A stretch of 64,000 nt of DNA from Rhodoferax sp. GTDB lineage: Bacteria; Pseudomonadota; Gammaproteobacteria; Burkholderiales; Burkholderiaceae_C. This document shows positions 1,960 to 58,831 of the stretch, one piece after another. Numbering within the stretch: position 1 is the stretch's first letter; every line of letters begins with the position of its first letter. Both the position numbers and the translations under genes were made by a program. Under the pieces are notes generated by a model. It worked only from the letters and a program-made list of their open reading frames with translations. It was not told the DNA's origin and did not search any database. The DNA lies in the NCBI RefSeq assembly GCF_013297935.1, contig NZ_JAAFIX010000004.1:154168-218167 (forward strand). Reading direction: 5' to 3'.

Positions 1960-3177
1960 TTATTTGACGAGCTGGTTGAGTTGAATGATAGGCATGAGCA
2001 CGGCCAGCACGATCAGCATGACGACTAGGCCCATGGCCACAATCAGCAAAGGCTCCAGCAGGGTGGCCAATTGCAGTGCGCGGCGCTGCACCTCGGTGCG
2101 CAGCTGCACCGCAGCGCGGTCCAGCATGTGGGGCAGGCGGCCGGTTTGTTCGCCCAGTCGGGCAAACATGCTCAAGAGCGCGGGAAAGCGCTGGTTGCGC
2201 GCCAACGCGCTGGCCAGCGGCGCACCTTCGCGCACCAGGGTCAGGGCTTCGAGGGCGTCGTCCCGCATCGCATGGTTGCTCAAGGTTTCAGCGGCGGCCT
2301 GCAGCGCTTTGAGAATAGGAACACCGGCCGCAGCCAACATGGCCAGGGTGCTGGCAAACCGGGCAGCGTTGTAGCTGCGGGACATGCGGCCCAGCACCGG
2401 CAGGCGCAGCCAAGCAGCATCCGCTTTAGAGCGAAAAGCGGCGTTAGCCCAGGCAATACGTGCGCCTATAGCTCCTAAAACAATAGCAATCAGCACCAGC
2501 CAGCCATAGGACCGCACAGCCTCGCTCAGTGCCAACATGATCCTGGTGAGCAGGGGCAGCGCCTGTTTGGAACCGGCAAACACGTTGGCAATCTGCGGCA
2601 CCACATAAGCCAGCAGAAACAACACAATGGCCAAAGCCACCAGGCTCACGATGGCCGGGTAAAGCGCCGCGCCCAGCAGTTTGGCAGACAGGTTCTGCTG
2701 CTCTTCGAGGTCGTCCGCCAAGCGCTCCAGCACCAGCCCGAGTTGGCCGCTTTGTTCTCCGGCGCTGACCACCGCGACATAGATGGCAGAAAACTCTTTG
2801 GGGTGCTGGGCCAGCGAGCTGCCCAAGGGCTTTCCCCCGTTGACCTCGGCACGAATGGTGGCGACTACATCGCGCTGAGCCGGGGTTTCTGCCTCATCGG
2901 CCAACGAGCTCAGCGCCCGCTCCAGGGGCAGGCCCGCACTGACCAAGCCGGCCAATTGGCGGGTCCAGACCGCGCGTTGCGTGGGACTGAACGCGCGTGC
3001 GCTCCAAGCGCTGCGTGGGGCATCGGTTGCCGCTTCTCCGCTCAGCGCCTGCACCTTTAACGGCACGAGTTGCTGGGCCCGCAAGAGACCGCGAGCGGAC
3101 TTGGCCGCGTCTGCCTCCACCACCCCGGTGCGGGTTTTTCCATCGGCATCGAGAGCTTGGTAAGAGAAGGCGGGCAT
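1960..3177 (-). CDS. gspF: T2SS inner-membrane platform protein F
   Basis: MPAFSYQALDADG start; TRQLAGLVSAGLPL and GEQSGQL motifs; terminal LLEPLLIV..MPIIQLN. Confidence 0.93.
   Translation of the reverse strand: MPAFSYQALDADGKTRTGVVEADAAKSARGLLRAQQLVPLKVQALSGEAATDAPRSAWSARAFSPTQRAVWTRQLAGLVSAGLPLERALSSLADEAETPAQRDVVATIRAEVNGGKPLGSSLAQHPKEFSAIYVAVVSAGEQSGQLGLVLERLADDLEEQQNLSAKLLGAALYPAIVSLVALAIVLFLLAYVVPQIANVFAGSKQALPLLTRIMLALSEAVRSYGWLVLIAIVLGAIGARIAWANAAFRSKADAAWLRLPVLGRMSRSYNAARFASTLAMLAAAGVPILKALQAAAETLSNHAMRDDALEALTLVREGAPLASALARNQRFPALLSMFARLGEQTGRLPHMLDRAAVQLRTEVQRRALQLATLLEPLLIVAMGLVVMLIVLAVLMPIIQLNQLVK
2434..2487 (+). repeat. 54-bp element, copy 1 (inside gspF)
   Basis: aaaagcggcgtTAGCCCaggcaatacgTGCGCctatAGCTcctaaaacaatAGC; encodes AIVLGAIGARIAWANAAF on the minus strand. 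Confidence 0.75.
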
Positions 3178-3410
3178 GACCCAATGGTAGCGGTGCACCG
3201 GTTCACACGGGTTTTCCACCATGACAAAAAAAGCGCTCGCCGTCATACTTCAATAAAAGCACGACCGTGCTATTTTGATGTTCTCCCGACGACACAAGCA
3301 GCAGGCAGACCATCACCCGCGACAGCGCCCCCACCCGAGAGGTCGCACCGGTTCTTTTTATTGGCATCCTTTCAACACCATCGACCCTCAGAGGTCCCGA
3401 GGAGACAACT

Positions 3411-4349
3411 ATGAAGATGAAGCGAATCGTGGTGGGCTGGCTGGCGGCGTGCGCGCTGTCCATCGGCCTCTTTCCGGTGTCGGCCCACGCAGCGGGCTAC
3501 ACCCAGACCAAGTACCCCATTGTGTTGGTGCACGGCCTGTTTGGCTTTGACAATATCGGCCCCGTGGAATATTTCTATGGCATACCCAGCGCGTTGCGTG
3601 CAGACGGTGCGCGTGTCTATGTGGTCCAAGTGTCTGCCGCCAACAGCACCGAGGTGCGCGGTGAGCAACTGCTGACCCAGGTGCGCCAGATTCTGGCAGC
3701 GACCGGCGCGGCCAAGGTCAACCTGATTGGCCACAGCCATGGCGGCCCTACCGCGCGCTATGTGGCATCGGTGCGGCCGGACCTGGTGGCATCGGTCAGC
3801 AGCGTAGGCGGTGTGAACAAGGGCTCCGCCGTGGCGGACGTGTTGCTCGGGGTAGCCCCTCCGGGAAGCGTGCAGAACTCGGCCCTGGTGTCGGTGACCA
3901 ATGGCCTGGCCACCATCATCAACTTTCTCTCGGGTGGCGGGGGTAACTCGCAGAATGCACTCGCCGCCGCCCAGTCCCTGAGCACGGCAGGCACCCTGAA
4001 GTTCAATGCCAAGCATCCGCAAGGTGTGCCCACCAGTGCCTGTGGTGAAGGCGCTTACAGCGTGAATGGTGTGGCCTATTACTCATGGAGCGGAGCGCAG
4101 CCCTATACCAACGTCTTGGATATCGTGGACCCGGCGTTGGCGCTGACCTCGCTGGCATTTGCCGGCGCTAAGAACGACGGCTTGGTCAGCAGCTGCTCGT
4201 CACGCCTAGGCCGCGTCATCCGCGACGACTACGCCTTCAACCATTTGGATGAAGTGAACCAGACCGTGGGGCTGACCAATATTTTTGAGACCAACCCGGT
4301 CACGATCTTCCGCCAGCAGGCCAACCGCCTGCGTAACGCAGGTCTGTAA
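3411..4349 (+). CDS. lipA: Secreted triacylglycerol lipase (family I, LipA-like)
   Basis: Signal peptide; [12 protein letters not shown]; GHSHGG nucleophile; NDGLV (Asp); NHLDEVNQ (His); two Cys. Confidence 0.92.
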
Positions 4350-5341
4350 TGCCTTTGCGCAGAAATGTGCGTACCGGCCTGGCCGGCATGGCACTGGCGC
4401 TCAGTGTGGCCGCGGTGTGGTTCGTGGTGCCCGGGCCGGAGGCCTCCGAGCCGCCGCAGTCAGGGCAGGTACCGGGCACCGGCCTCGGTGCACGGTCTCT
4501 GGAGGGCACGGTGCCCGACGGGCTCGCCGCACTCCAGGCCGGTGCACTGAATGCCCTTCCCACCGGCTGCCGGGAGACCGGTTGCGGCACCTTGGCCTAT
4601 GGTGAGCTCAAGCGCCTGTTTGACTACTACCTCAGCACCGTGGGGGAGCAAAGTATTGCGGCTATTACGGCTGAAATTCAGCAAGTCTTGACCCGCAACC
4701 TGAGTGCCGGGCAGCTGCCGCAGGCACTGCGCCTGTTGGACCGCTACATCGCCTTCAAGCAAGATATTTTGCGTCTGGAACAGGGGTTCGCGGCCAAAGC
4801 GAGTGCAGACCGCACTTTGCGCGCACGCTTTCAAGCCATGCTGGAAATTCGGGCGCGCCATTTCAGTGCAGAAGAGGCACAGGCCATGTTCGGTCTGGAG
4901 GACGCACAAGACCTCGATGCGCTGGCGCGCCTGGATGTTGCCAACGACGCGAGCTTGAGCGCCGCTGAGCGCCAGTCGCGATTGCAAGCCATAGACCAGC
5001 AGATGCCGAAGACCCTGCGCGAAGAGCGAGATGCTCCGCGCGGCGTGATGCTGTTGGAAGAGCGGGTGGCGGCACTGCGTGGGCAAGGCGCCGGGGATGA
5101 CGAGATATTCCGCACCCGCGCCAAAGCGCTGGACACGGCCGCGGCATCTCGATTGGCGGCGGTCGATCAGGAAGAGCGTGCATGGCGCTCACGCATGGAT
5201 GCCTATCTGGCCGAGCGCGCCCGACTGCTGGCGCGCCTAGACAACGCGCCCGAGTCAGAAAAAACCACCGCGCTGGCTGCACTCCAAACCGAGAACTTCA
5301 GCGAACTGGAGCGCAAGCGACTGGCAGCCTACGAGCCATAA
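4349..5341 (+). CDS. Lipase-specific foldase (Lif/LipH-type chaperone)
   Basis: Overlaps the lipase stop (TAATG); N-terminal membrane anchor; RLFDYYLSTVGE resembles the Lif RxxFDY(F/C)L(S/T)A motif. Confidence 0.85.
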   Translation: MPLRRNVRTGLAGMALALSVAAVWFVVPGPEASEPPQSGQVPGTGLGARSLEGTVPDGLAALQAGALNALPTGCRETGCGTLAYGELKRLFDYYLSTVGEQSIAAITAEIQQVLTRNLSAGQLPQALRLLDRYIAFKQDILRLEQGFAAKASADRTLRARFQAMLEIRARHFSAEEAQAMFGLEDAQDLDALARLDVANDASLSAAERQSRLQAIDQQMPKTLREERDAPRGVMLLEERVAALRGQGAGDDEIFRTRAKALDTAAASRLAAVDQEERAWRSRMDAYLAERARLLARLDNAPESEKTTALAALQTENFSELERKRLAAYEP

Positions 5342-57842: not shown

Positions 57843-58772
57843 ATGGAACAATCTAGCGCGCTCCACACTACGGCTATAGATCCGAATGACTTGCTCATCT
57901 TTGCCCGTGTGGCCGAGCTGGGCAGCTTTAGCCGCGCGGCCGACAAGGTGGGCTTGCCCAAGTCCAGCGTGTCGCGCCGGCTTGCGGCGCTGGAGCAGCG
58001 CTTGGGCGAGCGCTTGCTGCTGCGCACCACCCGCCGCCAGACCCTCACCGAGTTCGGCCAGCAACTGTTGGAGCACGCACGGCAAGTGGTGCTGGAGGTC
58101 GAGGCCGTAGCCGCCCTGAGCGAGCGCCGCCAGGCCACGCCCACCGGGCGACTGCGCGTCTCCATGCCCTCAGACATTGCCAACTTGTTGCTGGCCGACA
58201 TGCTGGGGGCATTTGTGGCCATGTACCCCGACATTTCGCTGGAGCTGGACCTGTCGGCCCGACGCGTAGACCTGTTGGGCGAAGGTTTTGACGTGGCCTT
58301 GCGCATCGGCGCTTTGCCGGACGACAGCCTGCTCGCTGCACGGCGCTTGCGCCTGATGTCCACCGGGTTGTATGCCTCGCCCCGGTACCTGGCGGAACAC
58401 GGCACACCGCAAGCGCCGCAAGACCTACTGCAGCACCAGGTGGTGCGCTTGCTGGGCGGCAACGGGGAGCCCGTGCCCTGGCGCTTGGTAAATGGCGATC
58501 AAGAGTGGACTGCGCTACCGCCCGGCCGGTTTGCCGCCAACGCACCCGACCTGCTGCTGCGCATGGTGTTGGCGGGCGCTGGCATAGGCGCAGTCCCCGA
58601 CGTGTTTGCCCAGCCCGATGTGCGCCGCCATGCCTTGGTGCGCATCCTGCCCGACTGGTGTTTTCCCCGCATGCCCGTATCCGCCGTCTTCCCCGGTCGC
58701 AAGCTCATGCCGCCCAAGACGCGGGTGTTTATTGAGATGCTACAGGCGGCTTTGGGGGAGTCGGCCCAATGA
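57843..58772 (+). CDS. LysR-family regulator (start uncertain)
   Basis: GSFSRAA..SSVSRRLAALEQRLGERLLLRTTR HTH; divergent from doxX-pirin; ATTGTT-N10-AACAAT dyad at 57831-57852. Confidence 0.9.
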   Translation: MEQSSALHTTAIDPNDLLIFARVAELGSFSRAADKVGLPKSSVSRRLAALEQRLGERLLLRTTRRQTLTEFGQQLLEHARQVVLEVEAVAALSERRQATPTGRLRVSMPSDIANLLLADMLGAFVAMYPDISLELDLSARRVDLLGEGFDVALRIGALPDDSLLAARRLRLMSTGLYASPRYLAEHGTPQAPQDLLQHQVVRLLGGNGEPVPWRLVNGDQEWTALPPGRFAANAPDLLLRMVLAGAGIGAVPDVFAQPDVRRHALVRILPDWCFPRMPVSAVFPGRKLMPPKTRVFIEMLQAALGESAQ

Positions 58773-58777
58773 GCATC

Positions 58778-58831
58778 AAAAGTGCACCCAGCCCTTGTGG
58801 AGTGTCCGCGAGTAGCTACTAAATCAAAAGC
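58778..58831 (+). repeat. 54-bp element, copy 11 (intergenic)
   Basis: aaaagtgcaccCAGCCCttgtggagtgTCCGCgagtAGCTactaaatcaaaAGC. Confidence 0.75.

Follow-up and report, generated by a model that had tools for sequence, protein, structure and literature searches.

What is the sequence that recurs, in spacers and within genes, along a 64,000-nucleotide stretch of the genome of a Rhodoferax sp. (here called the window; C25:154168–218167 of the host assembly G000, which comprises 3.61 Mb in 30 contigs), and what keeps it there? The initial annotation of the window had described a 54-bp element of fixed spacing in 11 copies, and had proposed either a coding-tolerant palindromic element analogous to the Rickettsia palindromic elements (RPE) or a genome-wide signal, protein-binding or chromosome-organising, maintained by selection. 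It had also suggested a profile scan of the genome and its relatives, an inspection of replichore bias and of the distribution between genes and spacers, and a search for 18-residue indels, for covariation and for a cognate RAYT/IS200-type transposase. The results of these analyses favour, with a probability of about one half, a reading in which the copies are sites of a long, rigid and asymmetric signal in double-stranded DNA that would be read by a protein and held by selection or by a drive resembling that of DNA uptake sequences. The motif family appears to be undescribed in the literature searched; full-text searches on Rhodoferax and Comamonadaceae repeats, two Rhodoferax genome papers included, gave no description of it.

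Architecture and copy number of the motif

A nucleotide profile (nhmmer), seeded on the copies of the initial annotation and then iterated over the whole host assembly, detects about 535 copies, and the density in the window (11 copies in 64 kb) equals the genome average of one per 6.5–6.7 kb. The repeat is real and stands far above chance, as had been claimed: the spaced pattern with at most three mismatches gives 10 matches in the window versus 0.15 expected from 100 dinucleotide-preserving shuffles of it (largest shuffle value, 1), and a looser pattern counted genome-wide gives 354 matches versus 2 for a control in which the pattern is read backwards. The fixed spacing holds equally well, with 533 of the 535 genomic copies aligning to the profile without any indel. 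Ten of the 11 copies originally listed in the window were recovered by the profile, the one at 37144 on the minus strand being reduced to a remnant, and a copy at 41515–41574 had been missed.

Conservation, measured as information content, is sharply bounded at about −4 and about +64 of the model, so that the unit spans 64–68 bp and not 54. Within these limits near-invariant blocks alternate with positions of almost zero information. Examples of the invariant blocks are AGCT at model positions 43–46 (99–100%), TAG at 57–59, TGCGC at 34–38 and TAGCCC at 18–23, and A/T tracts are placed between the GC-rich conserved blocks (GGCC, CTAGCCC, TGCGC, AGCTA and TAGCA). These tracts lie about 10.75–11 bp apart, with AAA or TTT possible in each of them, and the strongest period in the W content along the motif is likewise 10.75–11 bp, a value given here as description. 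The motif is asymmetric, its fixed dyad being restricted to the right third, and the strongest correlations involve adjacent bases only, e.g. AAA versus TTT at positions 7–9 and 51–53. Families of near-identical copies are absent, with one identical pair and 19 pairs that agree at 56 or more of 69 positions. The copies are single and no tandem arrangement was seen.

Placement, reading frames and codon usage

About three quarters of the copies are non-coding. A strict test (the two flanks coding in one frame, which stays open across the motif) places 118 of 532 copies within genes and a second one, in which frames are walked in from the flanks, places 142, i.e. 22–27% of the copies; those outside genes favour gene 3′ ends. 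The motif is indifferent to the direction of transcription, both within genes (59 versus 58 copies) and at gene 3′ ends (83 versus 66), and genes that end on a stop codon provided by a copy are co-oriented with it in 59 cases and opposed in 52. The spacing along the genome is near random (coefficient of variation 0.92 versus 0.98 ± 0.05), with a depletion of close pairs (5 neighbour distances below 500 bp versus 37 expected). A polarity similar to that of KOPS or Chi was considered and rejected, given that 252 of 453 copies (55.6%, p = 0.019) are co-oriented with the G-rich strand, a weak replichore bias; the 10:1 excess of the plus strand in the window is local.

Two frames dominate among the 142 intragenic copies, a sense frame (62 copies, consensus ..plAla..AQaA.k.IA) and an antisense frame (51 copies, consensus.Aik.iAarA.stGA.g.f), and in both of them the GC core is read as alanine codons. 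The two frames reported for the window were recovered, the antisense one in GspF, GspD, DUF3047 and the YnjF-like protein and the sense one in PGI and GspL, with the difference that the copy initially missed is read in a third. Rare codons, also pointed out in the initial annotation, account for 19–25% of the motif codons versus 5% genome-wide, ATA being the commonest. The notion that copies in genes chiefly specify transmembrane or signal segments is true of four window genes (gspF, gspD, the DUF3047 gene and the ynjF-like gene), but only 4–8% of the intragenic copies genome-wide are as hydrophobic as a membrane helix; these four examples are therefore not typical.

The alanine-rich reading of the core in the favoured frames, together with the partial matches given by AAR(A/S) segments alone, could be taken to indicate that the motif is a by-product of coding or of base composition, owed either to an alanine-rich peptide that recurs or to matches arising by chance where the genome is GC-rich. 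The probability of this is negligible in our judgement: most copies are non-coding, the counts exceed those of the shuffled (10 versus 0.15) and reversed (354 versus 2) controls, the same peptides are encoded in relatives that lack it, and the motif imposes rare codons on the genes that carry it.

Absence of a conserved secondary structure

Short self-complementary pieces can be seen in the consensus (GCTAy-N7-RTAGC and CGYA-N5-TGCG) and many copies lie just downstream of genes, as might be expected of a structured RNA or single-stranded DNA element acting on one strand, for example a set of REP-like hairpins, a stabiliser of mRNA or a terminator. Single copies do fold slightly better than their shuffles (z from +0.7 to −2.9), and in a three-hairpin model written from the consensus the in-register pairing (76%) exceeds that obtained with the partners slid (16–49%). 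However, this pairing does not depend on which copy the partners come from, as 76.3% of the cells are paired versus 77.1% when partner letters are shuffled among copies, and 479 of 500 shuffles reach at least the observed value.

No base-pair covariation was found by any of the approaches used. Mutual information shows no distant pair above about 0.1 bit. A sequence-only covariance model was used to gather 113 copies from the window and from the loci of relatives, and RNAalifold on their alignment gives 2 pairs, −0.38 kcal/mol and a covariation of 0. At the candidate stem 47–57 the combinations are A-T (309), C-T (122), A-G (54) and C-G (5), the frequent variants thus being non-pairing. No Rfam match was obtained at any copy. 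The lack of structural constraint and the nearly equal use of both transcription orientations point to recognition on the duplex rather than as RNA or single-strand structure, and leave an element of the latter kind very improbable.

Positional conservation and taxonomic distribution

In the syntenic regions of G004, G001 and G010 (about 75–89% nucleotide identity) copies are found opposite essentially all of the window copies. Over 470 kb of G004, 59 of the 63 mappable copies are common to G000; of the other four, three can still be seen in G000 in degraded form and one falls in a region that is rearranged, and no presence/absence polymorphism of the whole unit was seen between these two genomes. 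In the orthologous copies inspected as alignments the motif blocks are kept and the positions that differ between species are those of low information. At the GspF site the codons GCT and ATA, otherwise avoided in the genome, are fixed in 10 genomes.

A different situation is observed in G012, for which the results are provisional since the assembly is fragmented and carries 6% contamination. No motif was found in this genome, and its GspF contains nearly the same helix peptide encoded by GC-rich codons, with 3 bits at the motif site versus 29–44 bits in the 10 motif-bearing genomes. The GspF tree places G012 nested among motif-bearers with 97/95 support, so that, provisionally, the motif has been lost in this lineage. 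As a separate observation, G010 has profile copies at most of the orthologous window sites but only 35 strict matches genome-wide, versus 354 in G000; its copies look more degraded and it may be a lineage in which the motif decays.

Of 24 genomes of the same genus, about half have the pattern in abundance, with counts that range from 0 to about 270 matches, and it is at background in 16 genomes from other families of the order. Among 150 genera of the family, each represented by a single genome, about 10 are clear carriers of the motif, and the distribution is patchy. Copies, unannotated there, are also present on plasmids of Rhodoferax antarcticus and of strain OS-4. In G177, from another genus of the family, a 3.6-Mb genome contains 701 strict matches, twice the count of G000, and the motif load among genera therefore extends from none to probably more than 1000 copies. 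In G001 (strain OS-4), opposite position ~58.8 kb of the window, an 8.8-kb segment absent from the window carries three further copies; at the edge of this segment lies a fourth, orthologous to the copy found at 58774 in the window.

Recoding and length changes at motif sites

Thirty-one sites of G000 were mapped to G005, a motif-free relative (0 copies in 402 kb of its sequence), and 30 of them were interpretable (12 coding and 18 non-coding), with one further coding site aligning ambiguously. The lengths of the coding sites differ from G005 by 0 bp at five sites, 3 bp at one, 9 bp at two, 12 bp at three and 21 bp at one, and a change of about 54–68 bp was found at none of the 12. The initial view that the motif is overprinted on genes rather than inserted into them is borne out by these small differences. 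A gain of unit length was seen at none of the 30 sites, target-site duplications not having been searched systematically; six of the 18 non-coding sites fall together at +36 to +58 bp, apparently a real gain of sequence.

At the coding sites of equal length the protein homology continues through the motif, with amino-acid identities inside and outside of it of 0.83 and 0.86 in the MutL-like protein, 0.62 and 0.78 in the ROK-like protein, and 0.65/0.82 and 0.57/0.71 in two others. A codon-level comparison of the ROK-like site with G005 revealed that the native AAR(S/A) peptide already matched the motif core, and many synonymous or conservative changes towards the motif are seen around it. The YnjF-like protein has the same length as in G005 (identity 0.29 in the motif versus 0.68 outside), and no indels occur among 16 GspF orthologues; the constant length of these two proteins, at first suggested by comparison with E. 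coli homologues, is now supported by motif-free relatives. No 18-residue indels were found in the orthologue alignments (none of any size in GspF and YnjF). PGI is five residues longer in motif-bearing genomes than in motif-free ones. In the VTT-domain/oxidoreductase protein, 13 residues in the orthologues with the motif take the place of 6 in 60 others (a net gain of seven), and the flanks YGL and FSFK on either side are preserved in recoded form. On a tree of 81 orthologues this state requires two or three changes, and the insert-bearing set is largely one clade.

The gains at non-coding sites (+36–58 bp at 6 of 18) and the replacements by unrelated peptide in PGI (+5 codons) and in the oxidoreductase (+7) would be accounted for by an old, non-autonomous mobile repeat, similar to a MITE (a miniature transposable element with inverted repeats), a REP or an RPE, that spread by copy-and-paste, within genes perhaps by microhomology-mediated replacement, and is now immobile, with its copies trimmed, adapted or exapted. 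We consider this explanation unlikely, though a serious one. The excess of the summed information (Rsequence, 56.8 bits) over that needed to locate 535 sites (Rfrequency, 13.7 bits) suggests common descent, and the plasmid copies, the patchy distribution among genera and the location of most copies at gene 3′ ends, as in many small mobile repeats, fit it as well. It is difficult to reconcile with the two ends of the profile, the left one T-rich and with AAAT, the right one ATAGCA, which are not complementary and give no inverted-repeat signal in mutual information, leaving the motif without the terminal inverted repeats of a MITE, and with the absence of hairpin covariation, of near-unit-length insertions at the 12 coding sites and of any family of near-identical recent copies. 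In several coding copies 60–80% of the amino acids across the motif are still identical to those of motif-free orthologues, species about 80% identical show essentially no copies gained or lost, and neutral decay would give neither invariant columns beside random ones nor the retention of the motif across species.

A link to a RAYT/IS200-type transposase, followed here for the Y1 family, was rejected. Y1_Tnp (PF01797) has a single copy in 24 of 25 genomes of the genus, whether these carry the motif or not, and the Y1-like gene is not flanked by copies, the nearest one in G000 being about 5 kb away. This HUH-type gene is located in G000 at C23:302.3–303.1 kb on the minus strand and encodes ~230–250 aa. 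In the motif-rich G000, G001, G004 and G010 its Pfam match (E 1e-6 to 1e-7) is weaker than that obtained in the majority of the other genus genomes (E about 1e-10 to 1e-14).

A proposed protein-read signal on duplex DNA

The fixed geometry, the correlations confined to neighbouring bases and the indifference to the transcribed strand together suggest that the motif is duplex DNA read by a protein. In the proposed mechanism a protein or protein complex probably reads the 64–68-bp, ~57-bit motif on the duplex and bends it, and the copies would be immobile, their fixed genomic places being kept by an ongoing force on the DNA sequence itself. Such a force is suggested by the positional stability, the motif bases kept at synonymous sites despite the codon cost, and the decay in the nested lineage that lost the motif; it may be purifying selection or a biased-fixation drive as proposed for DNA uptake sequences. 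Within genes, existing codons would have been recoded with a length adjustment of 0–7 codons, mostly in the two alanine-reading frames and at tolerant protein segments. The near-random spacing and the tolerant placement are better fitted by drive, or by weak selection filtered by tolerance, than by an organising function. From these patterns we infer the reading by a protein, the bending of the DNA and a drive rather than a benefit to the host.

Of the two initial proposals, the genome-wide signal maintained by selection fits best (orthologous copies, kept motif bases, and loss in G012 with the peptide kept), except for the chromosome-organising role, which is not favoured by the near-random spacing and the 55.6% replichore bias. 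The RPE-like palindromic element was not upheld, with a fixed dyad only in the right third, no covariation, no clean in-frame insertions and no RAYT correlation.

A number of points weigh against a maintained, protein-read signal. No protein that binds the motif was found, and ComEC is present in all genomes with or without the motif, which makes a correlation with competence genes uninformative. The near-random spacing gives no sign of an organising role, and the retention of motif bases in orthologues rests on inspected alignments. The gain of sequence at six non-coding sites looks real, and the seven and five codons of unrelated peptide in the oxidoreductase and PGI are not explained by point substitution alone. 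The fourfold excess of Rsequence over Rfrequency is of a kind met more often among copies descended from one ancestor than among sites that evolved independently, and we know of no uptake sequence or binding site of such length. A mixed history, with spread by templated replacement followed by long maintenance, is possible.

Comparison with known dispersed sequences

The closest documented behaviour, by analogy, would be that of DNA uptake sequences, i.e. the uptake signal sequences (USS) of Pasteurellaceae and the DNA uptake sequences (DUS) of Neisseriaceae. Like these, the motif numbers hundreds of copies, which lie in either orientation, within and outside coding DNA, and often at gene ends. 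Uptake sequences occur in coding regions without length change, with a strong reading-frame bias and at poorly conserved residues (PMC2817400); the motif similarly has preferred frames, occupies tolerant residues and brings mostly small or no changes in coding length, the resemblance being only partial at the sites with +3 to +21 bp. DUS dialects are clade-specific and conserved at orthologous positions (PMC3630211), as is the motif. Uptake sequences are believed to accumulate by substitution under drive. The extended USS consists of core blocks with phased A/T tracts, an arrangement similar to that of the motif. On the other hand, the motif is far longer (64–68 bp and ~57 bits, versus 10–12 bp for DUS and about 30 bp for the extended USS), lacks a short core of ~9–12 bp, is six times sparser (~1 per 6.7 kb versus ~1 per kb), occurs as single copies instead of inverted pairs and, unlike uptake sequences, has some sites with +5 to +7 codons or +36–58 bp. 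A narrower form of the preferred reading, in which the motif would be a long composite 'self' tag of several Comamonadaceae genera, spread and kept by molecular drive, e.g. by sequence-biased DNA uptake followed by homologous replacement or by protein-directed biased gene conversion, is doubtful and rather improbable.

RPEs share with the motif a dispersed, in-frame occurrence in functional genes, the use of few tolerated frames and conservation between species. They are reportedly palindromic and add tens of residues relative to orthologues (as attributed to Ogata et al. in 2000), whereas the motif changes protein length by 0–7 residues, forms no palindrome and in several copies overlays a native conserved peptide. 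The REP, REPIN and BIME sequences are likewise short, of high copy number, mainly extragenic and frequent at gene 3′ ends, and BIMEs have been proposed to act by binding proteins (IHF, gyrase); the motif differs from them in the absence of hairpin covariation, in being unpaired and unclustered and in having about a quarter of its copies within genes, and from the RAYT-linked REPs in that the Y1 transposase-like gene neither tracks the copies nor is flanked by them. The BRE of Bordetella (75–91 bp, 69% GC, in tandem arrays of variable number) have been described from Comamonadaceae, Rhodoferax and Polaromonas among them, and at times lie inside coding sequence (PMC3110155). Identity of the motif with BRE, a comparison made by description, was rejected on account of its 64–68 bp, its A/T-rich blocks and its never being tandem.

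Copies and neighbouring features of the window

Pfam searches of the window genes agree with the names first given to them. Four of the copies lie in or near type II secretion and threonine-dehydratase-like genes of the minus strand. The copy at 2429–2489 (+, E 2e-8) is inside gspF (1960–3246; T2SSF), where the antisense frame is read as the transmembrane-helix peptide IAIVLGAIGARIAWANAAF. The copy at 8842–8901 (+, E 2.5e-11) is placed in the first 35 codons of gspD (6836–8941; secretin domains) and encodes, also in antisense frame, the hydrophobic core of an apparent signal peptide, and the copy at 10344–10403 (−, E 4.4e-11) lies inside gspL (10221–11429; T2SSL and GspL_C) in the sense frame, with the peptide LESFGALAPANTAPQAIEFIA; both have orthologous copies in G004 and G001. 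A weak copy at 14841–14892 (+, E 0.002) supplies the last codons and the stop of a 566-aa open reading frame (ORF; 14885–16585), threonine-dehydratase-like by direct reading, and is better preserved in its orthologues of G004, G001 and G010.

The copy inside pgi (24132–24189, +, E 1e-12; gene 23830–25398, plus; Pfam PGI) is read in the sense frame as LRNPPLAPVEYAGAAPEIVA. At the end of a HAD-hydrolase gene (27873–28523) the final five codons and the TAG stop come from the copy at 28509–28564 (+, E 1.4e-9), after which a terminator-like hairpin follows; the alignment of four species at this site shows the motif blocks kept and the region 24–33 variable. The copy at 30432–30492 (+, E 4e-13) fills the spacer between groES and groEL (both minus, groEL at 28768–30414) and has orthologues in G004, G001 and G010, as has that at 37870–37928 (+, E 1.6e-11). 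The latter includes the stop of a SelD-like fusion gene (37920–40373, minus) and the start of the DUF3047 gene (37145–37936, minus), of which it covers the first ~22 codons in antisense frame, both genes being Pfam-checked. The remnant at 37143–37163 (−), not counted here, has at most 21 nt matching model positions 41–61 (the right third) with 4.6 bits in a permissive nhmmer search, and the standard search of the window gives no copy there. Thus, the stop codons attributed to copies stand for the HAD gene, the 566-aa ORF and the SelD-like fusion, and that of DUF3047 lies in the unconfirmed remnant.

The copy absent from the initial annotation (41515–41574, +, E 7.8e-9) is inside the gene for a VTT-domain/pyridine-nucleotide-disulphide oxidoreductase protein (40297–42480, minus) and is read in the third frame as RYGLHSASRISGEGQSLFSF. 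It is followed by the copy at 42915–42975 (+, E 9e-11) inside the ynjF-like CDP-alcohol phosphatidyltransferase gene (42491–43096, minus; identity supported by Pfam), read in antisense frame as a transmembrane segment, and by an intergenic copy at 58774–58832 (+, E 9.5e-9), 2 bp past the stop of a LysR-family gene (57624–58772; Pfam LysR). With respect to its orthologues in G004, G001 and G010, this last copy has, within 58774–58850, a 17-bp internal insertion before the final TAGC.

Other features of the window were also noted. A c-di-GMP-I riboswitch aptamer at 31760–31845 (+, 59.7 bits with a gathering score of 35) is its sole Rfam match. Four direct-repeat copies of ~59 nt, 374–455 bp apart, at 12975–14295 (minus-strand genes) look like the N-terminal helix that successive type II secretion pseudopilin genes have in common, i.e. 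paralogy and not the dispersed motif. Two adjacent genes encode unusual fusions, a pyridine-nucleotide-disulphide oxidoreductase joined to a SelD-like AIRS domain (Pyr_redox_2-AIRS; 37920–40373, −, 817 aa) and a VTT/DedA-type membrane domain joined to a dihydrolipoamide-dehydrogenase-like oxidoreductase (40297–42480, −, 727 aa), and the two ORFs as listed overlap by 77 bp.

Biological implications

As a warning for annotation, what looks like a 'repeat insertion' in a gene may be native sequence that was recoded, and the motif would be of practical use as a strong lineage marker for binning and for the detection of foreign DNA in motif-bearing genomes. It also provides a clean natural test of a long DNA signal laid over protein-coding sequence, and selection and drive can be tested against each other because close lineages with and without it exist. 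If the self-tag reading were true, a system of the uptake-sequence kind would for the first time be known from bacteria other than Pasteurellaceae and Neisseriaceae, with a sequence about five times longer than any of the known ones. If a protein or an uptake machinery reads the motif, a genome-wide recognition system would operate in Rhodoferax and its relatives, abundant bacteria of freshwater and soil, shaping hundreds of sites per genome, supplying signal-peptide, transmembrane and stop-codon sequence, and forcing rare codons into essential genes, among them those at the MutL, PGI, GroES–GroEL spacer and type II secretion sites.

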